A stretch of 64,000 bases of DNA, taken from an uncultured Chloroflexia bacterium. Lineage in GTDB: Bacteria; Chloroflexota; Limnocylindria; Limnocylindrales; CSP1-4. The notes below the pieces were generated by a model. The model was given only the letters and a program-made list of their open reading frames with translations. It was not told the origin of the DNA and ran no database searches. The stretch is taken from the NCBI GenBank assembly GCA_963712745.1, contig CAVQJC010000017.1, forward strand, positions 224,001 to 288,000, given 5' to 3'. Positions 3,247-28,893 of the stretch are shown here, piece by piece. Position numbers and translations under genes: made by a program. The first letter of the stretch is position 1. The number at the start of each line of letters is the position of its first letter.

Positions 3247-4251
3247 TTATGCGGCGCAGTTCGGGCTGCTGCCGGGCTCGTCGACCGGAGCGAACTGGTA
3301 GTAGTCGCACGCGTTGTCCGGGGTGAGCAGCACCATGTCGATGTACTGCTTCTCGGGGAGGTCGGTGCTGCCGCGTCTTGATGTAGGCGTCCGCCTGCTC
3401 GGCCGACTGGAGATCGCCATCTCGGCGACCGGCTGCAGCGAGGTGGCCTTCAGCTCACCGGCGTTGATGGACATGATGGCGTCATCGCTGCCGTCGAAGC
3501 CGACCACGATGATGTCATCCATGCCGGCAGCCATGACCGCGGCCTGGGCGCCGAGTGCCATGGTGTCGTTGCCGGCGATGATGCCCTTGACGTCGGGGTA
3601 CTGCTGGAGCAGCTGCTCGGTGACCTGGAAGCCCTCGTCCTGGCTCCAGTTGGCGGTCTGCTGGGCGACCATCTCCAGGCTCGGGGATCTCGTCGAGGAC
3701 GTCGTGGTAGCCCTGGCTGCGGACGCTGCGCGTTGGTGTCCGTGTCGCGACCGGTCAGCTCGATGTAGGTGCCCTCTTCGCCCATCAGCTCGGCCGCAGT
3801 ACTCGGCGAGGATGGTGGCGCCCTGGTAGTTGTTGGAGACGATCTGGGCCACGGCCACGCCGTCCTGCGTGATCTCGCGGTCGACGAGGAAGCTGCGGAC
3901 GCCCGCGTCGGCGGCCAAGCTGGACCGCAGCCACGCTGGCGTCAGCGCCTGCGTTGTCGAGGATGATGGCGAGGGCGCCCTGCGCGACGCAGGTCTCGAA
4001 GAGCTCGGCCTGCAGCGACGGCGTCGTCGTTGTGGACGAGGCGGTCTGGTGCGTGTAGCCCAGTTCCTCGGCCTTGTCCGCAGCGATCTGCTGCATGGCG
4101 CCGAAGAAGGGGTTCTCCACGCCCGGCACGATGACGCAGATCAGGCCGCCCTCGGCCATCTCGTCGTCCTGCCCGAGGCGACCATGCCGGTCGAGGCCGT
4201 GAGCGCCAGGGCAGCGCTGAGCGCCAGCGCGGTGTGCGTCTTGTTGAACAT
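3247..4251 (-). CDS. Monosaccharide ABC substrate-binding protein, D-apiose-binding type (RbsB fold); several frameshifts
   Basis: Joined ORF pieces give a signal peptide (MFNKTHTALAL), ENPFF, AIILDNAGADAS, DREI, QIVSNNYQGA, ANWSQ, GNDTMA, VVGFDGS; GGAGG RBS before ATG 4251. Confidence 0.85.
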
Positions 4252-4268
4252 CCGTTCCTCCATTCTTC

Positions 4269-5456
4269 TCACTTCGTGGGCCGGCCCATCCGGCCCACTC
4301 CGTTCACTCCTCGGGTGTGTTCAGCGTCGTCCCTGTCGCTCCTCCTTTCAGGTGCTGCCGCTGTCGGCGTGTCGGAGTCGTCTGCGTGGATGACCTGGGC
4401 GGCCTGCTGCTGCAGGGCCAGCCGCCGCTCGGCGCGCTGCTGGAGCTGGTCGATGATCAGGGCCAGCACGATGACGGTGCCGGTGATGATCAGCTCCGGA
4501 ACGACGGAGATGCCCATCAGCGTCAGGCCGTTGTTGAGCGTGCCGATGACGAACGCGCCGATGATCGTGCCGAGGATGGTTCCGCGGCCGCCGGCGAGCG
4601 AGGTGCCGCCAAGCACGACCGCGGCGATGGCGTAGAGCTCGTAGTACAGGCCGATGGCGGGGTGTGCCGCCACGAGCTGGCTGGCGATGATGAGGCCGAC
4701 CGTGGCGGCGCAGAAGGCACTGATCATGTAGACGATCATCTTGGTGCGGTTGACGCGCACGCCCGAGAGTTCCGCGGAGCGCTCGTTGCCACCGACCGCG
4801 TAGACGGCCCGCCCGAACGGGCGTCCGCGTGGTCACGAACCAGGCCACCACCGCGAAGAGCACGAGGATGACGATGGCCCAGGGGACGACCCCGAAGGCC
4901 TCGCCGGTGCCCAGCTCGCGGAAACCGGTGTTGCCCAGCTCCTCCTTGCCGACGAGGTTGGGATAGGTCCCACCGTTGTTGATGATCCCGGCCAGGCCAC
5001 GGGCGACCATGAGCATGCCCAACGTGGCGATGAACGGGGCCACGTTGAAGCGGGTGATGATGAAGCCGCTGACGGCGCCCATGAAGGTGCCCGCCGCCAA
5101 GCGAGATGACCAGCACCATCCAGGTGTGCGGGAAGATGACCCAGTCGGCGACCTGTCAGGCCTTCGTGGATGAGCAGGCCGGCGACGATGCCGGTGAAAC
5201 CGACGATCGAGCCGACCGAGAGGTCGATGCCGCCGGTCAGGATGACGAAGGTCATGCCGATGGCGAGGATGCCGTTGAGCGCCGTCTGCTTGATGAGGAT
5301 CTCGATGTTGGCGCCAGTGAGGAAGGCACTCTCCACCCAGGCGAAGAACAGCACCAGCACGATGAGCGCGATGAAGGCGCGACCGCGGAGCAGGAACTGG
5401 GCGACCTCGGTCCGGGTCATGCCGCGCGTCTTGTCGGCCTGCGCATTCGCCGTCAC
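4269..5456 (-). CDS. Sugar ABC permease (RbsC family); frameshifted
   Basis: GMTFVILTGGIDLSVGS, PFIATLG, YELYAIAAVVLGGTSLAGGRG spread over three frames. Confidence 0.88.
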
Positions 5457-5491
5457 TGGATCACCTCGACGGTCCCACTTTCATTGCCTAC

Positions 5492-7059
5492 TCAGCTGTC
5501 GACCGCCGGTCCGTGACCGATGGCCGACGCGTCGACCAGCTCCTTCTCGGTCGCCCGGTCGCCCTCGAACTCGGCCACGACCTCGCCCTTGCTGAGCACG
5601 AGGATGCGGTCGGACATGGCCATGACCTCCTTGAGCTCCGAGGAGACGAAGACGATGCCGAAGCCCTCGCTGGCGAGGCGGCTCATGATCTGGAAGATCT
5701 CGGACTTGGCGCCCACGTCGATGCCACGCGTGGGCTCGTCGAGCAGCAGCACCCTGGGCTCGGTCATCAGGCCCTTGGCCACGACGACCTTCTGCTGGTT
5801 GCCGCCGCTGAGCGAGTCGATGCTGTTGCGCGGGATCGGCCACGCGGACCGAGAGGTCGTCGATCATCTGGTCGACCGCGGCACGTTCCTTGCGCAGCGG
5901 ACAGGTAGAACCGGTTGAGGTAGCGCTTCAGCGAGGCCAGGACCATGTTGTGGGCCACCGACAGCGTCGGCACCAGGCCCACCGTCTTGCGGTCCTCGGG
6001 CACGAGCACGACGCCGGCGTCGATGCGGTCGGCCACCGATGCATGCGGCGAGTCCCTGCCCTCGAGGCAGGACCTCGCCGCTGGCCTCGGGTCGGATGCC
6101 GGCGAGCACCTCCATGAGCTCGGTGCGACCGGCGCCCATGAGCCCGTACAGGCCGAGGATCTCGCCGGCGTGGACCTCGAGCGAGACGTGGTCGAGCAGG
6201 TAGCCGCCGCCGAGCCGCGGCAGCGTCACGTCCTTGACCTCGAGCAGCGTCTCGCCGACGTCGTGCTCGGTGCGGCGAGAACAGCGAGGCCGGCGAGCGG
6301 CCGACCATCTGCTCGATGATCCAGGCCACGTCCACGTCGGCGGTCTCCGCGTGGGCCACGATCGCTGCCGTCGCGCAGGACCGTGATGCGGTCGCCGACC
6401 TGCAGCAGCTCCTCGAGCTTGTGGCTGATGTAGACGATGGCCACGCCACGCGCCTTGAGGTCGGCGATGATGCGGAAGAGGCCCTCGACCTCGGCCTGGC
6501 TAAGCGCGGAGGTGGGCTCATCCATGATCAGCACGCGCACGTCGTGCGTGAGCGCCTTGGCGATCTCGACGATCTGCTGCTGGCCGATGCGCAGGTTGCC
6601 GACCAGCTCATCGGGGTCGATGTCCTGGCCCAGCCGCTCGAAGAGCTCGAGCGCCAGCTTCCGCTGCGCTGCGCGGTCGATGGCCGGGCCGCGGGTGATC
6701 TCCTGGGCCAGGAAGAGGTTGTCCAGCACCGTCAGGTTGGTGCACAGGTTGAGCTCCTGGAAGATGATGCCGACGCCGTGCTGGGCCGCGTCGGTGACGC
6801 GTGGGCAGGACCACCGGCTCGCCGTCGATCGAGGATGCGACCGTCGGTCGGCTGCTCGACGCCCGCGAGGACCTTCATCAGCGTCGACTTGCCGGCGCCG
6901 TTCTCGCCCACGAGCACATTGACCTCGGCCTTCGAAGACGTCGAAGGTGACGTCGTCGAGCGCGGTCGTGCCCGGGAAGACCTTGGTGATGTGCTCGGCG
7001 CGCATGGGTACGCGCAGCGACATCGGCTGCGGTGTGGCAACCGGCGCAGCCATCGTCAT
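5492..7059 (-). CDS. Sugar ABC ATPase (RbsA-type, two NBDs); frameshifted
   Basis: [46 protein letters not shown] in alternating frames. Confidence 0.9.
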
Positions 7060-7749
7060 CGCTCGATGACCTCGATGGGCACGAGCTCGATCTGGCTGAC
7101 GTCGATGGTCGGCTGGTTGAAGGTGCGCAGCGTGAAGGCGCCGGTGAAGTCGATGGTCTTGCCCTGCAGGTTCTCCTTGTCGAGGTCCTCGAGGTCGGCC
7201 ACGACCTTCTTGTTGATCTCCTTGGCGACCTTGCCGTACTCGGTCTGATCGCTGAAGTCGTTGAACTCGATGAAGCCGGTGGCATCGCGGACCGAGGTTT
7301 CGTCACTGGGGATGCGCGTGCCGATCCAGGCGCGGAGTCTGATGGGTCCGTCGTAGCCGTCGAGGTCGATGCCGATGCTGCCCTTGCTGCTCTCGATGTC
7401 GACGTCGGTGACGCGTGCCGCTACCGGTGACGCGGTAGACGTGTGCGTCGCCGGTGGTGATGCGTCCGAGCTCCTCGGCGACGGGCTTCAACTCCTCGGT
7501 GGCGATCATGCCGTCGGGCCCCGGCTCGATCTCGTTGAGCACGTCGGCGAGCGGCACGGCGTTGTCACGGATGGCGGTCTTCACCGTCTCCCAGTTGTCC
7601 TCGACGTAGACGACCGGGTCGAACTCGACGGTGAGCGCCGCCTCCTCTTCGGTGGAGACGACGGTGAAGCCGAACAGCAGCGCCACCACCGCGAAGACCG
7701 CCACGGCCACGATGCCGACGGCCATGCCCGGACTGACTCTCTCCCTCAT
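7056..7749 (-). CDS. DUF2291-family exported protein associated with apiose/erythritol ABC systems; frameshifted
   Basis: N-terminal [39 protein letters not shown]; ATGA overlaps on both sides. Confidence 0.8.
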
Positions 7750-8756
7750 GCCACCTCTACTCCCATGGGTTCGTTGCTCGTGCTGCCGTGATCCGATGCA
7801 GAGTCCGTCGCCAGCAGGCGCTCCGCGGTGTAGGTGTCGGTGATGAGGCAGTTGATCCAGCCGCCAACGATGGCCGCACGGATGGCCTCGGTCTTGCCAG
7901 GCCCGCCGGCCACGGCGATGGCGCGAGGCACGCGGCGCAATTGCTCGAGCTCGATGCCGATGACGCGGCCGTCCAGCGGCGTGTCCACCGGCCGGCCGTC
8001 CGCGCACAGGTAGCGCAGGCCGATATCGCCCACGGCCCCGGCCTCGCGGACCGTGCGTAGCTCCTCGGAGGAGAAGACGTTGCCGGAGCTGGCCAGCAGG
8101 CCGGATGTCTCCTGGCCGCCGATGCCGACCAGGGCCACGTCGAGCTCGTCGAAGAGCGCCATGGCGCGGGCCACGTACGGGTCTTGCACCAGCACCTCTC
8201 GGGCACCGGCCGAGCCGACGCTGCTGGGCGCCGGCAGGAACGTGCCCTCGCCGTGGAGCAGGTTGGCCATGCGCCGCACGAGGTGGGTCGCGTGGCCTTC
8301 CGCGGCCGGGTCGCCGCCCCCGCCGAGGATCTGCACCACGCGCACGTCCTTGACGCCACTGACCGGGTGCATGGCGTCGACCATGGCCAGCAGCGTGGCG
8401 CTCCACGAGCTGACGCCGATGACGTCGCCGGAGCGCACGGTGGATTCCACGTGGAAGGCCGCTGCGGCCCCGAGTTCGCGCACCGCAGCAGCGTCGTCGT
8501 CGCGGGAGATGTCGACGATCTCGGCCTCGGCCAGGCCGAAGCGGGCTTCGAGGGCTTCCTCGAGCTCAGGGTTGGTGCCGCTGGGCGCGCGAACGCTGAT
8601 GCGTACGATGTCCTCGTCCTGGGCCCCCTTGAGCAGTCGCGAGACCTTGGGCTGAGACAGGCGCAATCGAGACGCGATCTCGGGCTGCTTCAGGCCCACC
8701 TCGTAGTAGAGCCGTGCGACGCGGGTCATCAGGCGAAGTTCGTCGGCCCGTGCCAT
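7746..8756 (-). CDS. SorC/DeoR-family sugar-phosphate-binding transcriptional regulator
   Basis: VARLYY..Q.EIA..L..SQPKVSRLL HTH, IGVSSWS, DVALVGIG, GAVGDI, K.EAIRAA..GG.IN.LITD. Confidence 0.93.
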   Translation of the reverse strand: MARADELRLMTRVARLYYEVGLKQPEIASRLRLSQPKVSRLLKGAQDEDIVRISVRAPSGTNPELEEALEARFGLAEAEIVDISRDDDAAAVRELGAAAAFHVESTVRSGDVIGVSSWSATLLAMVDAMHPVSGVKDVRVVQILGGGGDPAAEGHATHLVRRMANLLHGEGTFLPAPSSVGSAGAREVLVQDPYVARAMALFDELDVALVGIGGQETSGLLASSGNVFSSEELRTVREAGAVGDIGLRYLCADGRPVDTPLDGRVIGIELEQLRRVPRAIAVAGGPGKTEAIRAAIVGGWINCLITDTYTAERLLATDSASDHGSTSNEPMGVEVA

Positions 8757-8757
8757 G

Positions 8758-9705
8758 TCAGTTTGCGACGACCTCCCGTGCGCCGGCAGCGATGCCCTCC
8801 GGGTCCAAGCCGTAGCGGTCCAGGAGGAACGTCGGCGAGCCCGTGGGACAGAAGCCGGGGAAGCCCAGCAGGCGCATGGGCACAGGTCGTTCGCTGACCA
8901 CGACCTCGGCCACGGCGCCACCGAGCCCACCGCGAACGATGGCCTCCTCGGCCGTGACGATGCCCTTGGTCTCGCTCGCCGCGGCGACGATGGCCGCGCG
9001 GTCGATGGGGGAGACGGTGGCCATGTTGATGACGCGTGCCTCGATGCCACTGGCCGCGAGGATGTCGGCCGCGGCCAGGGCGCGCGTGACCAGGACACCG
9101 TTGCTGATGATGGTGACGTCGTCGCCATCGCGTAACTGGATGGCCTTGCCGATCTCGAACTGGTAGCCGTCGGGATGGACGACCGGCACGCCGATGCGAC
9201 TGGTGCGGATGAAGACCGGGCCCTCGTACTCGTACGCGGCACGGACGGCCTGCGCGGTCTCGACCGGGTCGGCTGGCACGATGACGACGAGCCGGTCGAT
9301 GGCCCGCGTCCAGGCGATGTCCTCGATGGAGTGGTGGGTGGGCCCGAGCTCACCATAGGCCACGCCGCTGCTGACACCCACGAGCTTGACATTGGCACCG
9401 CTGTAGGCCGCGTCGACCTTGATCTGCTCGAGCGCGCGTGCGGTCAGGAATGGGCTGGCGCCCGCAACGAACGGGATCTTGCCGCCGTTGGCCAGGCCTG
9501 CTCCGATGCCCACCATGTCCTGTTCGGCGATACCGACATTGACGACACGCTCAGGCATGACCGCCGCGAGTTTGGAGATCTTGGTCGAACCGACAGAGTC
9601 GTTGACCACGGCCAGGATCCGCTGGTCCGCCCCCGCGAGCTCGATGAGCGTGTCGACGAAGGCGTCACGACAGTCGTAGAGCTGGACTGGAGCTTCGGCA
9701 GTCAC
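8758..9705 (-). CDS. aptB: Transketolase C-terminal subunit (apulose-4-phosphate transketolase subunit B-like)
   Basis: DCRDAF, NVGIAEQDM, RALEQIK, ELGPTHHS, EEA..RGGLG; GTG start overlapping upstream stop; aptB call depends on context. Confidence 0.8.
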   Translation of the reverse strand: MTAEAPVQLYDCRDAFVDTLIELAGADQRILAVVNDSVGSTKISKLAAVMPERVVNVGIAEQDMVGIGAGLANGGKIPFVAGASPFLTARALEQIKVDAAYSGANVKLVGVSSGVAYGELGPTHHSIEDIAWTRAIDRLVVIVPADPVETAQAVRAAYEYEGPVFIRTSRIGVPVVHPDGYQFEIGKAIQLRDGDDVTIISNGVLVTRALAAADILAASGIEARVINMATVSPIDRAAIVAAASETKGIVTAEEAIVRGGLGGAVAEVVVSERPVPMRLLGFPGFCPTGSPTFLLDRYGLDPEGIAAGAREVVAN

Positions 9706-10534
9706 GCCCGACTCCCTTCCAGCTCGGCCACAGCCTGGGCGTACTCCTCGTCGGTGGGCACGCGGTGGTGCCACTCCTTGCGATCCTCGATGAAGGAGAC
9801 GCCTTTGCCCTTGGTGGTGTTGGCGATGAGGCAGTTGGGCTGGCCGGGTGCGAAGGGGAGGGCGGCGAAGGCCTCGAGCAGGGCGGCGTGATCGTGGCCG
9901 TCGACCTCGCGGACGGCCCAGCCGAAGGCCTCGAACTTGTCGGGCAGCGGGTCGAGGCCCATGGTCAGCTCGGTGCGGTCACCCTGCTGTAGGCGATTGC
10001 GGTCGACGATGCAGACGAGCTTGTCCAGCCCAAAGTGGCCGGCCGACATGGCCGCTTCCCACATCGACCCTTCCTGCAGCTCGCCGTCGCCGGTGAGCAC
10101 GAACGTGCGCCGCGAGGCGTCGTCCATCTGGCCCGAGAGTGCGATGCCGACGGCCACCGGGAAGCCGTGGCCCAGCGGCCCGGTGTTGGTCTCGACGCCG
10201 GGCACCTTGTTGCGGTCGGGGTGACCGTTGAGGCGAGAGAGCGGCGCGAGGAAGGTGTCCAGCTCGGCGACGTCGAAGTAGCCGGCCATGGCCAGCGTGG
10301 TGTACAGCGCCGCGGCCGAGTGACCCTTGCTGAGCACGAAGCGGTCGCGCTCGGGATCGTCTGGGGTTCTGCGGGTCGTAGCGGAGCACGCCGCCGAAGA
10401 AGAGCGTGACCAGGATGTCCGATGGCCGAGAACTCGCCGCCGATGTGACCGAGCCCCGCGGAGTGGACCATCTTGATGTCGCGCAGGCGCACGTCGATGG
10501 CGCGCTGCCGGAGTGTCGCCGTGATGTCAGCCAT
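9702..10534 (-). CDS. aptA: Transketolase N-terminal subunit (apulose-4-phosphate transketolase subunit A-like); frameshifted near 10360-10420
   Basis: GHIGGEFS, LSKGHSA, LNGHP, NTGPLGHG, ThDP motif GDGELQEGS, TTKGKG, WHH. Confidence 0.8.
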
Positions 10535-10640: not shown

Positions 10641-10704
10641 TGAATGGCTATGCATCTGTGTATGAACCAGCGACAGCATAGGAATGCAGTAGTGAATATG
10701 TCAA
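10641..10704 (-). promoter_or_regulatory. Sigma70-type promoter of the transketolase/ABC operon with two putative SorC operators
   Basis: Minus strand TTGACA (10704-10699)-N18-TATGCT (10680-10675); 14-bp boxes TGAATGGCTATGCA (10641-10654) and AGCATAGGAATGCA (10675-10688). Confidence 0.65.
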
Positions 10705-10931: not shown

Positions 10932-12428
10932 CTACCCCCAGCGCACCCGGAGCGCGAGGTACGGCCGCGCCGGCAAGTCGACACCCACGACCGGAGCGAC
11001 CTGGTTCTGAATGTGGCCAGGGTATCGGTAGTGCGGTGGGTCAGTGAGCACCAGCGGCTCGATGGTCATGGCCCACGGGTCGATGAGCTCGACGCTGATG
11101 TCGCGCCGCCCGTCTGGGAAGCCACGGTACCAGGCCTGCGGCTGGTGGGACCCGAAGTAGATGATGCGCTCGCCTGATCCGGCCTCACAACCACCCACGA
11201 CGCCCCACTCCCAGCGGCCCTTCAGCGGTTCCCACGGACCCGGCGACTCCTCCATGATCCGGCGCAGGAATGCGATCCGCGCCGGGCTCTCACCTCGCAA
11301 GGTGCCGCCCTTGGCCCACCACAGTTGGTGGTCGTCGACCAGGTAGGTCTCGCCGTGCCCGGCGTAGCCCCCTCTGGTCGCGGTCATCCAGAAGCGGTGC
11401 ACGAGCTCCCGGGGGCTGATGTTGCCCCACGGATCGGGGATGTCGCCCTCGTACTGGGGCTCGTCGTTGACGACCGGCTTGCCCCAGTCGTCGCGCCAGG
11501 ACGTGGTGTCCTCGATGCGCTGGGACTGGATGGAGACGTGGCTGATCTCCGGCCGTGAGTGGTCGTAGAGCTTGTGCCCGTTGTGGATCGAGGTCAGACG
11601 ACGGTGCGGATCGCGCTCGTGGACGACCTCGAAGAAGCGCTCCCAGCGCTCGACCGGCTTGAGGTCCAGCAGGAAGTCGTACTCGTTGGCCAGCGACCAC
11701 CACACGTTGCGATAGGCCCCCAGGCGCGCGACGACATAGCGCAGGTAGGCGAGATCATCCTCCTCGGACATCTCGCAGTAGCCCCATCGGTCGTAGGGGT
11801 GGAAGAGGATGATGTCGGCCTCGATACCCAGGTCCCCCAGCTCGGCGATGCGCTTGTCGAGGTGCCCGAAGTAGGCGAGGTTCGGCTGCCGTGGGTCGAT
11901 GCGACCGTCCTCACCGATGGTGTACGGGTGAAGGGGCGGCTCGTTCTCGTTGTAGATGTAGTCCTTGGGGAAGACGCACATCCGCAGCTTGTTGAAGGGC
12001 GATGCCTCCAGGCTTCGGAGGGTCTGCTCCTGGACCTCGATGGGTTGATGGATCCAGGCATAGCAGGTGGTGCCGACCGGCACGTAGCGCGTGCCGTCGC
12101 GATAGCCGAAGTGGAACTGCGAGGCCACGTCCACCGGGCCGTGGTTGGCCGCATCAGGCTCGCTGCAACGGAACCGGCCCTCGTGGCCCTCGAGCTCCGC
12201 TACCTCCGAGAAGGTCCTGAACGACCACTCGCCGACCTGGTCGGGCGAGAAGCGCACGAGATAGCGACCGTCACCATCGTAGAAGCCATGGACCTCCACG
12301 TCGGTGGTCCCGCAGGTGAACACGGCTGACACTGGTGCGTCTCGCAGCGGATCGTCGATGGTCGGACCCGACAGCGAGACTTCGAAGACAGCCCAACGCT
12401 GGGCCTCGGGTGGGAATGCGACAGACAA
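10932..12428 (-). CDS. DUF5060-DUF4038-DUF5605 putative glycoside hydrolase (apiosidase/GH140-like fold)
   Basis: GFYDGDG.Y.VRF.P N-domain, GTTCYAW, PFNKLRMCVFPK, WWSLANEYD, SIHNG, VNDEPQYEG, HGETY; GGAGG RBS before TTG. Confidence 0.8.
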   Translation of the reverse strand: MSVAFPPEAQRWAVFEVSLSGPTIDDPLRDAPVSAVFTCGTTDVEVHGFYDGDGRYLVRFSPDQVGEWSFRTFSEVAELEGHEGRFRCSEPDAANHGPVDVASQFHFGYRDGTRYVPVGTTCYAWIHQPIEVQEQTLRSLEASPFNKLRMCVFPKDYIYNENEPPLHPYTIGEDGRIDPRQPNLAYFGHLDKRIAELGDLGIEADIILFHPYDRWGYCEMSEEDDLAYLRYVVARLGAYRNVWWSLANEYDFLLDLKPVERWERFFEVVHERDPHRRLTSIHNGHKLYDHSRPEISHVSIQSQRIEDTTSWRDDWGKPVVNDEPQYEGDIPDPWGNISPRELVHRFWMTATRGGYAGHGETYLVDDHQLWWAKGGTLRGESPARIAFLRRIMEESPGPWEPLKGRWEWGVVGGCEAGSGERIIYFGSHQPQAWYRGFPDGRRDISVELIDPWAMTIEPLVLTDPPHYRYPGHIQNQVAPVVGVDLPARPYLALRVRWG

Positions 12429-14028: not shown

Positions 14029-14062
14029 CCCAGCTGGGTCAAGGACCACGACCGAAGCAGAG

Positions 14063-14093
14063 GAAGGGGCCGGTCTCGTAGGCCGGCCCCTTC
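14063..14093 (+). terminator. Intercistronic stem-loop after the SBP gene
   Basis: 14-bp stem GAAGGGGCCGGTCT/AGGCCGGCCCCTTC with a 3-nt loop. Confidence 0.6.
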
Positions 14094-14126
14094 TCCATCT
14101 CCGAGCATCCGTCACAGTAGGGAGCC

Positions 14127-15008
14127 GTGCGCCAGGACTCCGGCCTCGCACCCGCGGTGCGTCGGTCGTACCCGTACTACTTCTATCTGCCGGCCGTCGT
14201 CATCTTCGGCGTCATCTTCGTCCTGCCGACGCTGCTCTCATTCTGGTTCAGCCTGACCCGGTGGACTCTGTTCGACGCTGAGTTCATCGGCCTCAAGAAC
14301 TTCGAGCTCTTCCTGCGCGAGCCGGCGCTTGTCAACGGCATGCGCAACACGCTCATCTACGCTGTGGTCACGAGCGGGGCCAAGGTCATCATCGGCCTTC
14401 TACTGGCCGCCCTGCTGACCTCCCGGTTGCGGGTCCGCAATCTCCTGCGGTCGATCATCTTCTTCCCCGTCCTCATCAGCACGGTCGCGGTCGGTATCAC
14501 GTTCGCGGTGCTCATGCACCCGTCCCGGGGGCTCATCAACACGACACTCGAGGTCTTCGGTGTCGATGGCCCGCGCTGGCTCACCGATCCAGCGATCGCC
14601 CTGCTCTCGGTGGCCTTCGTCGACGTGTGGAAGGGCGTGGGCATCGCGATGGTCATCTTCATCGCCGGCATCCTGTCGATCCCGGAGGAGTACAACGACG
14701 CCATCAGGCTGGAGGGTGGGGCCTGGAAGAGGTTCTGGTACGTGACCGTACCCTTGAGTCGAAACGCGACGTTCACTGTCATCCTGCTGTCGTTCATCGG
14801 TGGATTGCGCACGTTCGATCTCATCTGGACCATGACCGGCGGCGGGCCCGGCTTCACGACCGACGTCATCACCTCGAGTATCTACAAGCAGTACCAGGCG
14901 GGCTTCTACGGCCTCGCGACCGCGGGCAACGTGGTCCTCTTCATCGTCGTGATGCTGATCGTCTACCCGATGATGCGGTTCTTCGCGCGGAAGGAGATCG
15001 AGCTGTGA
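14127..15008 (+). CDS. Carbohydrate ABC permease (MalF-like)
   Basis: FIGLKNF, FFPVLIS, EAA-like loop SIPEEYNDAIRLEG, TGGGPG. Confidence 0.92.
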   Translation: MRQDSGLAPAVRRSYPYYFYLPAVVIFGVIFVLPTLLSFWFSLTRWTLFDAEFIGLKNFELFLREPALVNGMRNTLIYAVVTSGAKVIIGLLLAALLTSRLRVRNLLRSIIFFPVLISTVAVGITFAVLMHPSRGLINTTLEVFGVDGPRWLTDPAIALLSVAFVDVWKGVGIAMVIFIAGILSIPEEYNDAIRLEGGAWKRFWYVTVPLSRNATFTVILLSFIGGLRTFDLIWTMTGGGPGFTTDVITSSIYKQYQAGFYGLATAGNVVLFIVVMLIVYPMMRFFARKEIEL

Positions 15009-15910: not shown

Positions 15911-15920
15911 GAGCTTCCGC

Positions 15921-18659: not shown

Positions 18660-19621
18660 GAGCGTGAACCAGCCGTCTCAGATGGCTGGTTCGGGTTCTT
18701 ACTGGGCGCCGGATCCTCCTGCCTGCGCCGAGCCGCGTAGTGCACCCGACTCTGCGTCCGGTAGGCGCGAGGACTCATGCTCATGTGCTGCCGGAAGCGC
18801 CGTGAGAACTGGGATGGATCGGGCCACCCCACCTGCACACCCACTGCTCCGACTGGGCCGTCCGTCGTGGCCAGCAGCATCGCGGCATGCTCGGCTCGGC
18901 GCCGGTTGAGATAGGCGATGGGCGAGAGACCGACCCAGCGATTGAACTGGCGCACCAGGTGGAAGGGTCCGACGCAGAGCTGGCTCGAGAGATCGCCGAG
19001 CGTCCACTTCCTGGACAGGTCCTGGTCAAACAGGTCGACGGCTGACACGACCAGGCTTGAAGCCTGGGGGTCGATGGATACGGGCTGCAGCCGTTCAGGC
19101 TCCGCCTGGCGCGCCAGGACGTCCAACGCGAGCAGGAGATGTCCGAGGTCGAACGCTTCGCTGCGGTCTTCCGCCGGTCGCTCCCGAATGGCATCGAGAT
19201 GACCCAGACATTCGACCAGCTCCTCCTCATCGAGGAACCCCAGGAATGGCTGGCGCGGCTCGATCGCGGCAGGGCTGAAGAGGTGACCCAACCACTCGTC
19301 CCGGCGGGCCCAGGGCAGATCGAACTGGGTCGCCTCGACACGCAGCATGCAGTTGTAGACCACGAGGCCCTCGCCCATCCGGAACCCATGGCCGACGCCG
19401 GGAGCCACGAAGATGACTGACCCCCGGGTGAGCCGTTGCTCGCCCTCCGAGGTCATGTGCAGTCCGGTCCCTCGGGTCACCAGAGCCAGCTCATAGAAGT
19501 CGTGGAAATGGGTGAAGACGTGGGTCTGGGTCGCGATGTGGAACCCGACGAGCTGGGACTCTTCCATGAACGCGTCCGTCGAGATCGTGAAGCCCGGCGC
19601 GTGCGGCAGCAACCTCACCAT
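18656..19621 (-). CDS. AraC-family regulator (RhaR/RhaS-like)
   Basis: Cupin H.HDFYEL..V..G.G.H; C-terminal GWPDPSQFSRRFRQH..MSP..YR. Confidence 0.92.
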   Translation of the reverse strand: MVRLLPHAPGFTISTDAFMEESQLVGFHIATQTHVFTHFHDFYELALVTRGTGLHMTSEGEQRLTRGSVIFVAPGVGHGFRMGEGLVVYNCMLRVEATQFDLPWARRDEWLGHLFSPAAIEPRQPFLGFLDEEELVECLGHLDAIRERPAEDRSEAFDLGHLLLALDVLARQAEPERLQPVSIDPQASSLVVSAVDLFDQDLSRKWTLGDLSSQLCVGPFHLVRQFNRWVGLSPIAYLNRRRAEHAAMLLATTDGPVGAVGVQVGWPDPSQFSRRFRQHMSMSPRAYRTQSRVHYAARRRQEDPAPSKNPNQPSETAGSRS

Positions 19622-19740: not shown

Positions 19741-20535
19741 TCAGGACATGATCAGGCCGCCATCGACGTTGATGGTCTGGCCGGTGATGTAGGACGCATC
19801 CTCTGAGGCCAGGAAGAGCACCAGCCCGGCCACGTCATCAGGGGTGCCGGCACGTTTCATGGGGATGTTGTTCTGCACCCACTCCTCGATGAGTTCGCCT
19901 TCTTTGTAGTCACCCAGGAGGTCTTCCCAGGCCTTGTCGTTGTACTTCCACATCTCCGTCTCGATGATGCCGGGGCAGAAGGCGTTGACGGTGATGCCAC
20001 TGGTGGCCAGTTCCTTGGCGAGGCTCTGGGTGATGCCGACGACGCCCATCTTGCTGGCCGCATAGTGGGGTGTGTAGATGAAGCCGTCGCGCGACTGGCC
20101 GGAGCCGGTGTTGATGAGCCGTCCGGAGCCCTGGCGGAGCATGTGCTTGGCTGCGGCCTGGCAGCAGAGAAAGACGCCCTTGGTATTGACGGCGAGGACC
20201 AGGTCCCACTCCTCCTCGGTCAGTTCGTCGAGCTTCTTGATGGTGATGACCCCGGCGTTCTGGATGGAGACATCGACACGGCCGAACTCTTCCACGGTGC
20301 GCTGGTAGAGATCCTCGACCTGACCCTTGTCGGTCACGTCGACGACGAGCGACAGCACCTTCGCGCCGGTGGCGGAGCGGATCCGCTCGGCGGCGTCATG
20401 GACGGCGTCCTCGTTCGCGGCGAGGACGACGGACGCGCCTTCCTGCGCGAATCGGAGCGCGATGCCTTCGCCGATGCCCCGGCTCGCACCGGTGACGACG
20501 ACGACCTGTCCTTCGAATCGGGCCTGCCCCACCAT
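19741..20535 (-). CDS. SDR-family NAD-dependent oxidoreductase (polyol/sugar dehydrogenase-like)
   Basis: TGASRGIG, NAGVI, YAASK, CPGIIET, ITGQTINVDGG. Confidence 0.92.
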   Translation of the reverse strand: MVGQARFEGQVVVVTGASRGIGEGIALRFAQEGASVVLAANEDAVHDAAERIRSATGAKVLSLVVDVTDKGQVEDLYQRTVEEFGRVDVSIQNAGVITIKKLDELTEEEWDLVLAVNTKGVFLCCQAAAKHMLRQGSGRLINTGSGQSRDGFIYTPHYAASKMGVVGITQSLAKELATSGITVNAFCPGIIETEMWKYNDKAWEDLLGDYKEGELIEEWVQNNIPMKRAGTPDDVAGLVLFLASEDASYITGQTINVDGGLIMS

Positions 20536-23194: not shown

Positions 23195-23356
23195 TGCAAG
23201 GATATGCATCAAACGGGACAGTACTCCTGTCTACGAGGGCTCGTCAACCGCGCTGACGGTCTGGCCAGGTCCGCGTAGCCGCCCTTGACATCGCCGCGGC
23301 GGAGGGGGTATCGTCCCTGCGGATTGCATACTCTCACGTGTCTGCATGAATATTCC
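23195..23356. promoter_or_regulatory. Divergent sigma70 promoters with putative SorC operators
   Basis: Minus: TTGACG (23247-23242)-N18-TACTGT with box TGCAAGGATATGCA (23195-23208). Plus: TTGACA (23285-23290)-N18-TATCGT with box TGCATGAATATTCC (23343-23356). Confidence 0.65.
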
Positions 23357-23454
23357 GGTCCGTCAATGCTAGAGGAGGGGTGTCTGGGGAAGGCCACAAG
23401 CTCTGTCAAGGACACGCCCGTCGAACACGCGGGCGACATGTGGAGGGATATTCA

Positions 23455-24490
23455 GTGATCATCAAGCGTTCATCAGCGGCTGCACTCGCAGTCGTGCTCG
23501 GTGGGACCCTGGCGACGAGCTCGTTAGCCGTCGCTCAGGACGCGCCGAGTGACCCATCCGAGATCGATGTCGCGTGGATCGGGAAGACCCTGAACAACCC
23601 GTGGTGGATCTCGGTCGCCGACTTCGCCGCGCGCGAAGCCGAGCAGCTGGGCATCAACATGACCATCTCGCTTGCCGGAGGAAGAGGTCGACCTCGGCAA
23701 GCAGATCGCCATCATCGAGGCCGCCGTCGAGCAGGGCGTCGACGCCATCATCATCTCGGCCTCGAGCTCTGAGGGCATCATCCCGGCCATCGAGCAGGCC
23801 CGCGAAGCCGGCATCAAGATCGTCAGCTTCGACACCCGCATCGACGACCCGTCACTGGTCGATGTATACGTCGGTGCGGATGACTTCGCCGGCGCCAAGA
23901 AGGCAGGTGCCTACATCTGTGCCGCACTCGGCCCGGAGGGTGGTCAGGTCGGTCTGCTTGAAGGCCTGCTCGCCCAGTCGACCGGTGTCGACCGCAAGGG
24001 GGGCTTCGAGGCCGGCATCGCCGAGTGCGAGAACCCCGTCGAGATCGTGGCTACACAAGGCGCTGAGTGGCGTTCCGACCTCGCGCTCAACGCGACCCAG
24101 AACATGCTCACCGCCAATCCGGACATCAAGGCCATCTTCGCCTCCAACGACCAGATGGCCGTGGGCATGATCAACGGTGCGATCGCGGCGGGCTATGGGC
24201 CCGACGACCTCATCCTGGTCGGCTACGACGGCATCCTCGACGCGGTCAACGCGGTGCTCGACGGCGACCTCGATGCGTTCGTGGCACTTCCCAACCGCGA
24301 GGAAGGTGAGATGGGTCCTCGCCTGGCGACTACGCTGGTGCTGAACCCGGACATCACCTTCGATCGCGAGATCATCTATCCCGGTCCGCTCGTCACGGCT
24401 GAGCTCGTCGAGGGCCAGACAGACCAGGTGATCGAGGAGTTCGCGGCCTACCGGTTCCCGCTCCGCGGTGTGACCGACAAGGGCTACTAG
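23455..24490 (+). CDS. Monosaccharide/polyol ABC substrate-binding protein; frameshift near 23670
   Basis: Signal peptide, KTLNNPWW, YVGADD, IFASNDQMA, VGYDG. Confidence 0.88.
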
Positions 24491-24610
24491 TACTCGACGG
24501 GGGCCGGTACGCTGGCCTCCGACACACTCCTCCTCACTGGGCCCACGGGCGAGAGGGCGTGCCAGACTCGCCCCTCGCTCGTGGACCAGTACCAAGCACG
24601 GAGTCGGTGG

Positions 24611-26135
24611 ATGGCGGCAGTGGCGACGGCGACGGCGCTGCTCGAGATCGAGCATGTCACCAAGGATTACCCCGGCGTGCGAGCGCTCGATGATGTTTCG
24701 CTCTCGGTCGAGCGTGGTGAGGTCATGGCGCTGCTGGGCGAGAACGGAGCCGGCAAGTCCACCCTCATGAAGATCCTCGGCGGGGCGGAGCACCGTGACT
24801 CGGGGGTCATCCGGATCGACGGCAAGGAGGCACCCCAGCAATACGATCCGCTCGAAGCGCGGCATCTCGGGATCGCCGAGATCTACCAGGAGCTCAGCCT
24901 CCTGCCCAGCCTCACGGTCGCCGAGAACATCTATCTGACCAAGGAGCCGCTGCGCGCCAAGCGCGCCAGGGTCATCGACTTCCCGAAGATGCGCGAGCAA
25001 TCGCGCAAGCAGCTGGCTGTCCTGCGCGCTGAGCACATCGACGTCAATGCCAGGGTCGAGACGTTGTCGATGCCCGAGCAGCAGATGGTCGAGATCGCCA
25101 AGGCCCTCGCCTCCGACTGCCGGGTGCTCGTGATGGACGAGCCGACCACCGCGCTGACCTGGTCCGAGACCGAGCAGCTCTTCTCGGTCATCGACGCCCT
25201 CAGGGGCAAGAACGTCACGATCATCTACATCTCGCACCGGCTTGACGAGGTCTTCCGCGTCGCCGATAGAGCCACGGTCCTGAGGGACGGCGCGGTCGTG
25301 GGAACGGTGCGCACGGCAGACATCGAGATGGGCGACATCATCACGATGATGACTGGCCGGACCATGGAGGACGTGGCCGCACGGCCTGACGATATCCTGA
25401 CCGCACCTGATCGAGAACTGCTCGTCGTCGAGGATATGCGCGACGATAAGCGCGTTCACGGCGTCTCGTTCACGCTCCACGAGAATGAGGTGCTTGGGAT
25501 CGCCGGCCTGGTGGGTGCCGGACGTACCGAGCTGGCTCGCATGATCTTCGGAGCTGACGCGCGTACTGGAGGCACCATCCGCGTCTCAGGGGAGGCGATC
25601 AACTCCGGTTCACCCGGCCAGGCCATGAGCCACGGTATCGGCTACCTCAGCGAGAACCGCAAGGAGGAAGGCCTGAACCTGGGTCTGCCCATCGATCTGA
25701 ACATCGTGCTCACCGACCTCGGCAAGGTCAGCCAGCGTGGCGTGATCTCACGGCGGGGCATGCGCGTAGCGGCCGAGGAGCTCATCGATCTGCTGCGCAT
25801 CAAGGGCCGCGCACCTGACGAGGCCTCGAGCCTCAGCGGTGGCAATCAGCAGAAAGTCGTGATTGCGAAGTGGTTACATGCGGGCTGTCGCGTGCTCATC
25901 TTCGATGAGCCGACTCGCGGCATCGACGTCGCCGCCAAGGCCGAGGTCCACAAGCATCATCCGGGACTTCGCCCGGGATGGCAGGGGCGCGGTCGTCATC
26001 TCTTCGGAGGTCGAGGACCTACTGGCTGTCTGCGACCGCGTACTGATCATGTCCAAGGGCCGCATCACGGGAAGGCTTGCGCCCGAGGAGGTCACCAAGG
26101 ACGCCATCGTGCGTCAAGTCACCAACGTCGAGTGA
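24611..26135 (+). CDS. Sugar ABC ATPase (RbsA-type); frameshift near 25960
   Basis: [36 protein letters not shown]. Confidence 0.92.
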
Positions 26136-26142
26136 GGACTTC

Positions 26143-27160
26143 ATGACGACCGAAGACGGAAGTGGGTCTGCCAGCGTAGGAGCAGAGTCTGCAGGCCGAA
26201 GCGCGAACGCGAGAGTGGTCGACACAGGAGCTCCTAGGGCGTTTTGGCGTGCTGCTCATGCTCATCGCCTTGGTCGTCGTCTTCAGCGCCCTCTCGCCGC
26301 ACTTCCTGTCACAGGGCAACATCACCAACGTCCTCATCCAGTCGAGCACCAACGCGATCATCGCGGCCGGCATGACGTTCGTCATCCTGTCGGCGAACAT
26401 CGACCTCTCGGTCGGCTCGGTCCTGGCGCTGTCGTCCGTGCTCGGAACGTCATTCATCGCCGACGGAGGGTCGATCTTCATCGGCGTCGGCATCATGCTG
26501 CTCGGCGGCATGATCGCGGGCGGGATCAACGGCTTCACCGTCAGCTACCTCGGGTTCCCGGCGTTCATCGTCACGCTGGCAACGATGTGGCTGTTCCGCG
26601 GTATGGCCTACGTCTTCACCAACGGGCAGGCCGTCACCGGCCTGCCGAAGGATTTCCGCATCCTCGCCACCGGCGAAGTCGCCGGCATCCCCTACATCGT
26701 GCTGGTGATGATCGCCGTCTATGCCGTCTGCCACTTCCTGCTCTCGCAAACGACCTTCGGGCGCCAGGTCTACGCCGTCGGCGACAACAAGGAAGCCGCA
26801 CGACTCTCGGGCGTGAACGTCAAGCGCGTCGTCGCCGCCGTATTCGTGATCTGTGGCCTGTTGGCGGCCCTCGGCGGCGTGGTCCTCTCGTCCCGGCTCT
26901 TCTCCGGCCAGCCGATCGCCGGCATCACCTTCGAGCTCTCGGCCATCGCCGCGGTCGTCATCGGCGGCACCAGCTTGTCCGGTGGCAAGGGCGGCATCCT
27001 CGGGACGCTTGTCGGAGCCATCTTCATCGCCACGCTGATCAACGGGCTGGTCATCCTGAATGTGTCCTCGTTCTGGCAGCAGGTGATCATGGGACTGGTC
27101 GTGCTCGCCGCGGTCGGCATCGACCAGTATCGCAAGCGCCTGGCCTCAGGTCGGGTGTAG
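26143..27160 (+). CDS. Sugar ABC permease (RbsC family); frameshift near 26240
   Basis: GMTFVILSANIDLSVGS, PAFIVTL, AIAAVVIGGTSLSGGKG. Confidence 0.9.
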
Positions 27161-27174
27161 GGCGTTCAGGATCG

Positions 27175-27981
27175 ATGTCGGAAGAGGGCATGGGTGCCCG
27201 GCTCGATTTCGTCGCCGAGCTCATCGCCGAAGCCGGCGCGCATGCGCTCGAGTTCTTTCAGCACCGAGAGTCGCTCCATGTGAGCGCCAAGGGGCGCCAG
27301 GACATGGCCAGCGAGGCGGATGTCAGCATCGAGAAGCTGATTCGCAAGCGTCTGGCACTTCGGTTCCCGAGCGATGCCTTCCTCGGTGAGGAGACGGGTC
27401 GCACTGAGGTGGAGGGCACCGACGGCATCTGGGTGGTCGATCCGATCGATGGCACCCAGCCGTTCGTGAGCGGGCTGACGTCCTGGTGCGTGTCGATCGC
27501 CTATGTCAGCGCCGGGGCGGTGCAGCTGGGCGTCGTGAATGCACCGGCTCGGGATGAGCTATTCATCGGTAGGCGCGGCGACCGCGCCACGCTGAATGGT
27601 GACCGCATCACGGTCAGCGACGCTACCAGACTCGACGAGGGCATCCTTGGCATCGGCTACTCGCCTCGGATCGGCGCCGACGACGTCATCCCGGTCCTCG
27701 ACCATGTGCTCCGGCAGGGTGCGATGTTCTACCGGGATGGCTCGGGCACACTGGATCTCTGCTACGTCGCTTGCGGGCGACTGCTGGCCTACGTCGAGCC
27801 GCATATCCAGGCATGGGATTCGCTAGGAGCCGTGGCCGTCGTGGAGGCTGCCGGGGGAGTCGTCAACGACCTGCTGGCGGACGACTCGCTGTGGGTGGGG
27901 GCGCCGATCGTGGCCAGCGTTCCGGCACTCTATCCGGCGCTGGCCAGGCTCATGAACGTCACAGCGGAGGGTGCTGGCTAG
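27175..27981 (+). CDS. Inositol monophosphatase-family sugar phosphatase
   Basis: FLGEE, WVVDPIDGT, GSGTLDLCYVACGR, WDSLGA. Confidence 0.9.
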   Translation: MSEEGMGARLDFVAELIAEAGAHALEFFQHRESLHVSAKGRQDMASEADVSIEKLIRKRLALRFPSDAFLGEETGRTEVEGTDGIWVVDPIDGTQPFVSGLTSWCVSIAYVSAGAVQLGVVNAPARDELFIGRRGDRATLNGDRITVSDATRLDEGILGIGYSPRIGADDVIPVLDHVLRQGAMFYRDGSGTLDLCYVACGRLLAYVEPHIQAWDSLGAVAVVEAAGGVVNDLLADDSLWVGAPIVASVPALYPALARLMNVTAEGAG

Positions 27982-28053
27982 CCTCGCATCTGCTCCACGC
28001 AGCCAACGGCTCGGTCATAGTCTTGAGTCCACACCGGCAAGAGGAGCAAACCC

Positions 28054-28893
28054 ATGACGACCAAGTACGTGGCCGTCTTCGGCGATCCCGTCGAAGGCAA
28101 CCCGACCTCCATCATGCAGAACGCGGCTTTCGAGCATGCCGGGCTCGACTGGCGCTACCTCGACATCCGCGTCAGGGCGGAGGACCTGTCGGCTGCCATC
28201 GCGGCCGCTCGGCTCTTTGGTTTCGGCGGGCTCAATTGCACCATCCCGCACAAGGTCGCGGTCATCCCGCTGCTGGACGGCCTGGAGCCTTCGGCGGAGA
28301 TCAGCGGTGCCTGCAACACCATCGTGCGTCAGTCGGACGGCCGACTCATCGGCTCCAACACCGACGGCTCCGGCTTCGTCTGGTCCATCCGCGATGAGGG
28401 CATCGACCCTGCCGGGCTCGATGTCGTGCTGCTCGGTGCCGGTGGTGCCGCGCGGGCCGTCGTCGGTAGAGCTGGCGCTGGCCGGGGCCAGGCGCGTGAC
28501 CATCGCCAACCGCACGGCTGCCAAGCGCGACGAGCTGGTCGGCGATCCTCGACCGGCGGACAGACTGTCGAGGCCGTCTCACTGCCCTGGGAGGGCACGC
28601 TGGCGGTACCGGCCTGTGACGTGCTCGTCGACTGCACGCCCGTGGGCATGGGCACGGATCTGGCTGCGGAACAGCGTGTCGACGTCGATCTCTCCGCCCT
28701 CTCGACCGACACCATCGTGTGCGATCTCAATCCGGAGACGTCCGAGTCAGCCTTCCTGCGCTTCGCCGCTGAACGCGGCCACCGCACGCTCGATGGCCTG
28801 GGCATGTTGGCCCGGCAGGGAGCGGCAGGCTTCAAGGCCTGGACCGGCCAGGACGCCCCCCTGGATGTCATGATCGCCGCGCTAGGCGGCTAG
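28054..28893 (+). CDS. Shikimate dehydrogenase-fold oxidoreductase with atypical substrate site; compensating frameshifts near 28465 and 28550
   Basis: NCTIPHK, ACNT, NTDG, GAGGAARA, ANRT (alternate frame), TPVGM, DGLGML..QG. Confidence 0.85.
   Translation: MTTKYVAVFGDPVEGNPTSIMQNAAFEHAGLDWRYLDIRVRAEDLSAAIAAARLFGFGGLNCTIPHKVAVIPLLDGLEPSAEISGACNTIVRQSDGRLIGSNTDGSGFVWSIRDEGIDPAGLDVVLLGAGGAARAVVGRAGAGRGQARDHRQPHGCQARRAGRRSSTGGQTVEAVSLPWEGTLAVPACDVLVDCTPVGMGTDLAAEQRVDVDLSALSTDTIVCDLNPETSESAFLRFAAERGHRTLDGLGMLARQGAAGFKAWTGQDAPLDVMIAALGG

Follow-up and report, generated by a model that had tools for sequence, protein, structure and literature searches.

The 64-kb stretch of DNA analyzed here (the window; C17:224001-288000 of G000, a 4.2-Mb metagenome-assembled genome (MAG) of 20 contigs with ~68% GC) carries genes that, judging from their relatives, very probably form a locus of the transketolase pathway of D-apiose catabolism. 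The sugar apiose is widespread in plant cell walls, but the routes of its catabolism were not defined until 2018. The non-oxidative route reportedly consists of an isomerase (ApsI), a kinase (AplK), and a two-subunit transketolase (AptAB); AplK is said to phosphorylate apulose, and AptA/AptB to split apulose-4-phosphate into dihydroxyacetone phosphate (DHAP) and a C2 unit that is passed to glyceraldehyde-3-phosphate. The best explanation of our data, which we favor on balance, is a Chloroflexota version of this non-oxidative locus with its isomerase encoded on another contig (C6) and with an add-on module found in one subclade of the genus. An earlier note on this DNA had described an apiose-type locus without an isomerase, proposed that two oxidoreductases bypass the missing step or that apiitol or another branched polyol is used directly, and knew of no earlier description of such a variant. 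Its assignment to apiose was supported, the short-chain dehydrogenase/reductase (SDR) it named proved to be an orthologue of an E. coli apiose-cluster enzyme, and the shikimate-dehydrogenase-fold (SDH-like) gene to which it pointed is linked to the kinase; the missing isomerase, the complete bypass, and the novelty were not borne out.

The genes of the window were called by third-position GC and then analyzed with Pfam and NCBIfam profiles. The comparison within the genus comprised 49 genomes, G000 included (G-numbers denote genus genomes and L-numbers extracted loci; related records are titled Chloroflexia or Chloroflexota MAGs), and the best 80 loci were kept from each locus scan, including those seeded with the E. 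coli aplK product, the isomerase, and the window SDR. As the reference, ten proteins of the apiose cluster of E. coli SE15 were searched against G000. In the paper describing that cluster (PMC13001218, J Bacteriol 2026), ECSF_RS02700 is designated aplK and RS02710/RS02715 are designated aptA/aptB, strains with the cluster are reported to grow when D-apiose is their only source of carbon, and MetaCyc PWY-8089 is cited for the transketolase-type apiose pathway. The window contained the best G000 match for seven of the ten proteins. E. coli AplK was 47% identical to the window kinase (441 bits, the next G000 paralogue scoring 289), AptA and AptB found their best matches in the genome in the two adjoining transketolase genes (51% and 40% identity, respectively), and the E. 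coli SorC regulator was 43% identical to SorC1 and 42% identical to SorC2. The substrate-binding protein (SBP) of the E. coli cluster showed 33% identity to the frameshifted SBP1 of the window and 39% to the SBP1 orthologues of the genus, and the best window match of the permease (35%) was permease 2 of the second importer. The best G000 matches of the ATPase and of the SDR encoded by RS02670 lay on other contigs, and the DUF2291 protein of the E. coli cluster had no match in G000 at 1e-10. The E. coli kinase carries the motifs GDSHAAL and KATYGTGSSVM, nearly the same as those reported earlier for the window kinase, which we confirmed at residues 273 (GDSHAAL) and 291 (KATYGTGSSLM) of its 524-aa open reading frame (ORF).

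The substrate assignment was further examined with the binding protein and a neighboring glycosidase. An intact SBP1 orthologue from a congener (L003:7717-8742) matched PDB 5IBQ/4RY0 with 318 bits, the next chain scoring 181 bits. We take 5IBQ to be a D-apiose complex; the literature searched on this entry only repeated its generic PDB name. Of the two binding proteins, only SBP1 is thus putatively apiose-type; SBP2 gave 80 bits with 5IBQ/4RY0 and had its best match in 5DTE (117 bits). Next to the catabolic genes, the window encodes a protein resembling glycoside hydrolase (GH) family 140, in which the PF13204 match (61.5 bits, cut-off 26.5) was accompanied by PF16586 (DUF5060, 69.5 bits) and PF18310 (DUF5605, 37.8 bits). 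PF13204 is named "Apiosidase-like"; the closest known enzyme is the GH140 apiosidase of Bacteroides thetaiotaomicron rhamnogalacturonan-II degradation. Homologues of this protein (41–52% identity) were found beside the isomerase or aptAB in other phyla, at 7 of the 80 isomerase loci and 2 of the 80 SDR loci. The apiose-type character of the locus, as the earlier note had read it, is therefore strongly suggested by the E. coli SE15 orthology, the 5IBQ-like SBP1, and the GH140-like neighbor.

The profile search detected no AP_endonuc_2 (xylose-isomerase-like) or Fucose_iso_C gene in the window. The scan with the E. coli aplK seed showed, in its 80 loci, two kinds of Enterobacterales cluster. The first carries a pair of SDRs together with DUF2291; the second is SDR-less, consists of SBP, DUF2291, ATPase, permease, SorC, AptA, AptB, a Fucose_iso_C protein, and AplK, and encodes the 472-aa Fucose_iso_C protein in a gap of ~1.5 kb between aptB and aplK. 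An intact FucI-like isomerase gene of this family, 470 aa without stops, was found in G000 at C6:86277-87686, and its product was 51% identical (530 bits) to the protein in the isomerase slot of the SDR-less aptAB/aplK clusters. The earlier statement that no xylose-isomerase-like gene is visible was thus correct for the 64 kb, whereas the genome carries an isomerase of another family than the one sought. A sample of 301 genomes of one family was searched with AptB (66 positive), and 30 of the AptB loci were inspected together with flanks of 1.5 kb; 11 had a FucI-like isomerase beside aptB, and the other 19 had none within the flanks. Five loci, all of the divergent-AptB group, were extended to 20 kb; each contained two SDRs, and isomerases of every family were absent from them.

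The neighborhoods (10 kb) of the isomerase were then compared in 80 loci from many phyla together with 7 controls. Of these 87 rows, 43 lay near AptAB or an AplK-like kinase, 16 had a context marked by a DRL-type oxidoreductase, 1 had both, and 27 had neither, many of the last sitting on short contigs. The AptAB/kinase and DRL contexts were interleaved in the isomerase tree, and the genus formed one clade (SH-aLRT support 100) that included both the G000 copy and a copy in an apiose-operon context. In G024, ~95 bp separate the end of the apiose operon's SBP1 gene from the start of the isomerase gene (84% identity), and no DRL gene or DRL-type cluster was found in the genome. Across the 49 genomes, the isomerase was present in 28, a kinase orthologue (≥62% identity) in 29, and both in 26; the three genomes with the kinase and without the isomerase are at most 64% complete. 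These results suggested that the isomerase step is most likely supplied from contig C6, a proposal we consider more probable than not, and that the apparent loss of the isomerase was an artefact of viewing a single window.

Several observations weigh against this proposal. In G000 the isomerase gene lies in a different sugar cluster, and the isomerase could serve another substrate, because G010 has that cluster and no apiose operon. In the sources searched, homologues are never called "apiose isomerase", only "L-fucose/L-arabinose isomerase family protein" or similar; the nearest NCBIfam model was sulfoquinovose isomerase, at 78–114 bits against a cut-off of 700, and a PDB sequence search gave nothing at E ≤ 0.001. 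The literature searched yielded nothing defining the ApsI protein family, which had been presumed to be a xylose-isomerase-like TIM barrel, and the Pectobacterium cluster was not among the best 80 loci in any of three scans. The equation of ApsI with the FucI-like family is thus an inference by elimination. Neither palindrome of the aptA promoter (see below) occurs in the C6 cluster, which leaves co-regulation unsupported, and a search for an operator shared by the window and the C6 cluster gave no 12-mer common to at least five promoter regions at ≤1 mismatch. This operator test is limited, since a different operator is expected on C6, where the regulator SorC3 is only 39–43% identical to SorC1 and SorC2. 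The earlier note had named ApsI elsewhere under the same operator as an outcome that would speak against its reading; a candidate isomerase was found elsewhere, and the same operator was not found on C6. Finally, the completeness of G000 (84.55%, with 5.03% contamination) limits every absence claim, and shared ancestry is a confounder for co-occurrence patterns that come from a single genus.

The C6 cluster itself (G000:C6:84643-91742; L093:8644-15743, minus strand) encodes SorC3, a SIS protein, a zinc-dependent alcohol dehydrogenase (ADH), the DRL-type (DXR-like) oxidoreductase, the FucI-like isomerase, and a XylB-like FGGY kinase. The oxidoreductase matched PDB 3UPL/3UPY with 395 bits, and the 16 isomerase rows in this context were spread across Chloroflexota, Planctomycetota, and Acidobacteriota. 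The cluster may represent a further, undescribed route for the isomerase product.

Next, we examined the genes flanking the kinase gene, which comprise SorC2 and the SDR on one side and the second importer (SBP2, ATPase2, permease 2) with an IMPase-family phosphatase on the other. The SDR occurs in 6 of the 49 genus genomes, where it lies between the kinase/SorC2 genes and aptA, and SBP2 orthologues occur in five (G000, G014, G022, G044, and G049), all of them SDR-bearing; in the sixth SDR genome, G006, the kinase lies at the edge of a 5.4-kb contig. Both halves always flank the kinase gene. In a further congener, G021, a 36-codon remnant of the SDR C-terminus (89% identity; L095:12070-12177) remains between the kinase gene and aptA, and the SorC2-SDR segment was therefore apparently deleted in that lineage. 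The SorC2-SDR and SBP2-ABC-IMPase segments thus appear to be a subclade-specific module, to which only a putative substrate can be assigned. The module most probably channels some related polyol or ketose to the kinase/transketolase trunk and does not replace the isomerase. In a specific form of this idea, which is compatible with the non-oxidative reading and which we put forward tentatively, the module would import and oxidize another polyol or ketose (apiitol, or a branched or C4–C5 polyol) for AplK and AptAB, while apiose itself would still enter by SBP1 and the isomerase. Consistent with this, SBP2 is not apiose-type and is confined to SDR-bearing genomes, and the nearest NCBIfam models of the SDR are polyol/acetoin dehydrogenases, e.g., L-iditol 2-dehydrogenase (218 bits, below its cut-off). 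On the other hand, the ligand proposed for SBP2 is purely putative, the phosphatase has no obvious role, and the module could be an adjacent, unrelated insertion. SBP2 was rejected as the cognate binding protein of two-SDR clusters elsewhere, to whose binding proteins it is only ~30% identical. The phosphatase, one of eight paralogues in G000 (seven other IMPase genes), scored below all NCBIfam equivalog cut-offs, and for the participation of the IMPase and the second importer in apiose catabolism, as formerly supposed, we found no link beyond adjacency in one subclade.

The other gene of interest beyond the second importer encodes the SDH-like oxidoreductase, for which AroE identity was ruled out: the protein scored 186.1 with the AroE equivalog TIGR00507 (cut-off 200.2), it has an NPT motif where AroE has HSxSP, and its distribution is limited to kinase-bearing genomes of the genus. 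Its best solved relative was the 5-ketofructose reductase 7COK (163.5 bits), with true shikimate dehydrogenases at 138.7 bits or less. Orthologues (≥67% identity) were found in 26 of the 49 genus genomes, all with the kinase, and in at least 14 of them it sits on the strand opposite to the kinase gene, no more than 500 bp away, which supported the suspected tie of this gene to the locus. None of the 156 isomerase or SDR loci from outside the genus had an SDH-like gene in its 10-kb neighborhood. In the window copy, an insertion at ~28462 and indels at 28539-28566 put residues 137–172 out of register with both relatives compared, and partly because of this the protein had looked "atypical" to the earlier reader. 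G000 contains four other Shikimate_dh_N genes. Two SDH-like/IMPase pairs elsewhere in the genome (C2:66254-68136 and C1:375971-377842) were rejected as copies of the same module, their SDH parts being only 28–40% identical and hence distant paralogues.

These two oxidoreductases led to the bypass proposed earlier, in which apiose would be reduced to apiitol and re-oxidized to apulose by two oxidoreductases. In the genome context, the SDR would act together with the SDH-like enzyme, the latter in place of the second SDR of Escherichia/Rhizobium-type clusters, and the C6 isomerase would belong to an unrelated pathway. PMC13001218 reports for Escherichia ST131/ST14, Klebsiella, and Raoultella an apiose cluster that lacks ApsI and has a pair of SDR oxidoreductases, the two of E. 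coli being "hypothesized to functionally replace apsI". The window SDR is an orthologue of one of them, ECSF_RS02675 ("SDR2"; 62% identity, 337 bits, the next G000 paralogue having 151 bits and 36%). Among the 80 loci kept in the SDR scan (L178-L257; orthologues 66–95% identical), 58 had a second SDR (≥55% identity to E. coli RS02670, "SDR1"), an AplK-like kinase, and AptAB, and their 10-kb surroundings held no isomerase; they include loci of many Rhizobium species, Neorhizobium, Variovorax, Nioella, Verrucomicrobiota, and Trueperaceae. The two-SDR bypass is thus a real and widespread gene arrangement, already hypothesized in print for Escherichia in that paper, where it is accompanied by growth data; such a variant, of which the earlier note knew no description, has thus been described as a hypothesis. 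A third Enterobacterales layout was also observed (L377-L381), with a DeoR-type regulator instead of SorC, SBP, DUF2291, ABC genes, AplK, and an SDR2 orthologue (78–88%); its AptA/AptB are 44–47% identical to those of E. coli, its second SDR is 33% identical to RS02670, and an isomerase was not found.

For G000, we regard this bypass as unlikely. The kinase linkage of the SDH-like gene and its 5-ketofructose-reductase-like NPT motif speak for it, as do the orthology of the SDR and the 58 isomerase-less loci. However, no orthologue of SDR1 was found in G000, where the best match, C20:390986-391738, reached 42% against 60–68% for SDR1 orthologues in other phyla and is surrounded by other SDR, ADH, and ABC genes; nor was an orthologue of a third SDR type found (best match 37%). 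An obligate pairing of the SDR with the SDH-like gene is not seen, since they are present in 6 and 26 of the 49 genus genomes, respectively, and within 10 kb at the 156 non-genus loci an SDH-like gene was never found. Five of the six SDR-bearing genus genomes also carry the isomerase, and G024 has the operon and the isomerase without an SDH-like gene. In the SDR scan, 8 of the 80 loci had AptAB without a second SDR: four of the genus, two of Spirochaetia, and two of Verrucomicrobiota with an isomerase instead. L183 and L184 combine SDR2 and the isomerase in one cluster, suggesting complementary rather than alternative roles. G000 holds half of the two-SDR arrangement plus an isomerase; the bypass lacks one enzyme there and is not needed given the isomerase. 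Of the two oxidoreductases proposed earlier, the SDR is a true ECSF_RS02675 orthologue; the complete route was not supported.

It is also conceivable, at a still lower probability, that more than one entry route feeds the kinase/transketolase trunk in the genus, namely the isomerase and an oxidoreductase route with the 5-ketofructose-reductase-like enzyme, the C6 cluster being a further route. If so, the SDH-like enzyme in one subclade would work with SDR2 and the second importer, either to convert apiose, apiitol, and apulose into one another or to let in a branched polyol.

The first importer was not an ORF in this assembly, although all of the genes previously listed are present, and its region changes frame about a dozen times in the frame plot. 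Loci in seven congeners are syntenic with the window (81–90% identical), and four of them (L002, L003, L005, and L007), treated as intact after ORF listing, were used for indel alignment. Relative to these, 22 insertions and 4 deletions, each of a single base, were counted in the window from 3681 to 10421; they avoid homopolymers, and SorC1 and AptB are free of them. The insertions are distributed over SBP1 (7), the permease (3; ~4818, 5101, and 5154), the ATPase (8), DUF2291 (1), and AptA (2), and one lies close to the start of SBP1. Two comparisons also agreed on single-base insertions in SBP2 (~23670) and ATPase2 (~25953). The patch reached 15 frame switches per 5 kb (genome median, 4; 99th percentile, 12), placing it in the top ~0.5%. 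This patch, at 3500-8500, is made of single-base insertions, and other patches of G000 with 12–16 switches per 5 kb lie at C1:432-482 kb, C20:~385 kb, C15:~197 kb, C14:~5 kb, and C11:~210 kb.

We consider these frameshifts very likely to be consensus errors of a long-read MAG rather than gene decay, because of the 22 insertions against 4 deletions, ratios of nonsynonymous to synonymous substitution (dN/dS) like those of relatives, and independent contigs without the extra bases. After removal of the insertions, no in-frame stops remained in the importer genes. The dN/dS values of the window against L003 were 0.131 for ATPase 1, 0.161 for permease 1, and 0.29 for DUF2291, and those of L002 against L003 were 0.130, 0.156, and 0.305. 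Logan contigs of four metagenome runs left out one base at 12 listed places, 10 of them within 4 nt of insertion sites, and none added a base there; pieces from the same runs were 99–100% identical over SorC1 and AptB. Two points temper this reading. The dN/dS of SBP1 is somewhat raised (0.374 against L003, range 0.37–0.65; relatives 0.262), and the Logan contigs are short and from related strains, such that the same population is not demonstrable (all shares of the matching runs were ≤0.18). That the first importer and AptA are genuine pseudogenes in a decaying apiose operon, the second importer having taken over, is improbable: the raised SBP1 value and the extreme frame-switch density fit it, but the insertion bias, the absence of nonsense substitutions, the unchanged dN/dS of the other three genes, and the Logan contigs do not, patches of the same kind occur elsewhere in G000, and MAGs of relatives show like gene splits at other positions. 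Pseudogene calls in these genus assemblies need read-level support.

It is very improbable that the locus serves glycerol, erythritol, threitol, or another small polyol instead of apiose: the window kinase passes the NCBIfam GlpK subfamily model (551.7 against a cut-off of 498), and neither SorC regulators nor split transketolases, of which G000 has at least five loci, are confined to one pathway, but the kinase of the E. coli apiose cluster is likewise GlpK-like by score (495 bits, TIGR01311), SBP1 is 5IBQ-like, and in the window as in other phyla the locus has a GH140-like neighbor. GlpK identity of the window kinase was ruled out by its score below the equivalog TIGR01311 (536.9 against 590.35) and by its placement in a 44-row kinase tree, where 8 GlpK-like kinases without AptAB neighbors, including a copy on G000 contig C8, formed one clade (SH-aLRT 99) and the window kinase lay outside, among AptAB-linked kinases.

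To characterize the regulation of the locus, the aptA upstream regions of 10 genus loci were aligned. The promoter is kept across the genus as TTGACA, a spacer of 17–18 nt, and TATGCT. In relatives, the spacer contains an ATGCAG-N2-CTGCAT palindrome that is degenerate in the window; downstream of the promoter lies a TGAAT-N4-ATTCA-type palindrome, TGCATAGCCATTCA in the window, which at ≤1 mismatch has 7 matches genome-wide, including the aptA site. These palindromes are likely, though putative, SorC operators. SorC2 is 52% identical to SorC1, and SorC1, SorC2, and SorC3 gave 214–239 bits with the E. coli apiose-cluster regulator, compared with 94 bits for the fourth SorC protein of G000. In the SDR-bearing subclade, GTACAGTCC and GATGCATAT boxes are common to the sequences upstream of the kinase gene (~23200-23249).

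The features of the locus are collected in Table 1. The split transketolase, the two SorC regulators, DUF2291, and the two CUT2-type importers reported earlier were confirmed by Pfam and NCBIfam, as was the gene order, with the SDR beyond the kinase and SorC2 and with the IMPase and shikimate-dehydrogenase-fold genes after the second importer. The earlier inventory had omitted the GH140-like gene, the SBP_bac_1 ABC system, the GH78 gene, and the AraC regulator lying between the two clusters. Most genus members have the order kinase, aptA, aptB, sorC, DUF2291, ABC, SBP. The glycan module between the SDR and aptA (12727-19621) is present in G000 and G014 and was not found in G006, G022, or L180; with the GH140-like gene, it looks suited to plant glycans or glycosides bearing apiose and rhamnose.

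Table 1. Features of the apiose-type locus, with positions given in the window.
Feature	Position	Strand	Evidence or remark
SBP1, CUT2/Peripla_BP_4, apiose-type	3247-~4260	-	Pfam matches in two overlapping ORFs; split over at least two frames
Permease 1 (BPD_transp_2)	4353-5462	-	Three frames; pieces 92-98% identical to L003 orthologue
ABC ATPase 1	5490-7056	-	Partial ABC_tran match and frame plot; eight single-base insertions
DUF2291 lipoprotein	7059-7752	-	One frameshift at ~7413
SorC1 regulator (Sugar-bind domain)	7746-~8750	-	206 bits, intact
AptB-like transketolase C-terminal subunit (TktC)	8758-9774	-	Intact
AptA-like transketolase N-terminal subunit (TktN)	9702-10534	-	Single-base insertions at ~10362 and ~10421
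aptA promoter with palindromes	10641-10704	-	Alignment of 10 genus loci
GH140-like glycosidase	10932-12428	-	PF13204, 61.5 bits
SBP_bac_1 and two permeases	12727-15910	+	Pfam
GH78 alpha-L-rhamnosidase	15921-18659	+	Pfam
AraC regulator	18656-19621	-	Pfam
SDR, orthologue of E. coli ECSF_RS02675 (SDR2)	19741-20526	-	62% identity
SorC2 regulator	20609-~21580	-	Pfam
AplK-like FGGY kinase	21583-~23070	-	524-aa ORF
Second CUT2 importer: SBP2, ATPase2, permease 2	23440-27160	+	Pfam; divergent from kinase
IMPase-family phosphatase	~27190-27981	+	162.7 bits
Shikimate-dehydrogenase-fold (SDH-like) oxidoreductase	28054-28893	+	Pfam, NCBIfam, PDB sequence search

Homology, synteny, phylogenetic placement, and co-occurrence were observed, and from these we predict the substrates and reactions of the following scheme. 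The GH140-like apiosidase, the GH78 rhamnosidase, and the oligosaccharide ABC system would free apiose from plant glycans, and SBP1, DUF2291, and the first ABC system, by orthology, would import it. The FucI-like isomerase from C6 (G000:C6:86277-87686) would turn apiose into apulose, the AplK-like kinase would phosphorylate the apulose, and AptA/AptB would cleave apulose-4-phosphate to DHAP, with the C2 unit going to glyceraldehyde-3-phosphate. The two SorC regulators may act on the operon through the conserved palindrome-bearing promoter. The subclade add-on flanks the kinase gene, with SorC2 and the SDR on one side and SBP2-ABC-IMPase on the other.

Genomes appear to solve the apiose-to-apulose step in at least two ways, with a FucI-like isomerase or with an SDR pair; the latter, found in pandemic E. 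coli lineages, Rhizobium, Verrucomicrobiota, and others, is biochemically only a hypothesis. The same genome can hold both, isomerase-less clusters have one SDR type as their constant partner, and a shikimate-dehydrogenase-fold reductase is linked to the apiose pathway in one genus. The window locus reveals no new solution to this step and belongs to the known pathway, with a few unexplained add-on genes. The apparent decay of the importer, very likely an artefact of MAG consensus errors, calls for caution with similar calls.

Compared with the ApsI-less cluster of Escherichia (PMC13001218), the window shares the SDR2 orthologue (62%), the kinase motifs, DUF2291, SorC, and AptAB, and differs in that the ECSF_RS02670-type SDR is missing in G000 and an isomerase is encoded there. 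Both loci have a kinase and transketolase of the kind found in the ApsI-AplK-AptAB cluster. With that cluster, which Carter and colleagues are said to have described in 2018, the window shares AptA, AptB, the AplK-like kinase, SorC, DUF2291, a CUT2 ABC system, and a 5IBQ-like SBP. The host is a member of the Chloroflexota here and of the Proteobacteria there, the isomerase gene of G000 lies on another contig inside a different sugar cluster, and the window adds a second SorC, the SDR, a second importer, and the GH140/GH78 glycan module. In the SDH-like protein, as in 7COK/7COL, a ketose reductase of the shikimate-dehydrogenase fold, the shikimate-carboxylate-binding HSxSP is replaced by NPT; this likeness is at the family level and not orthology, and the window copy has a mis-framed NAD-binding segment. 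The GH140-like protein, likened by domains only, shares with the B. thetaiotaomicron GH140 apiosidase the domain set DUF5060, Apiosidase-like, and DUF5605, and in the window its gene adjoins the apiose catabolic genes.

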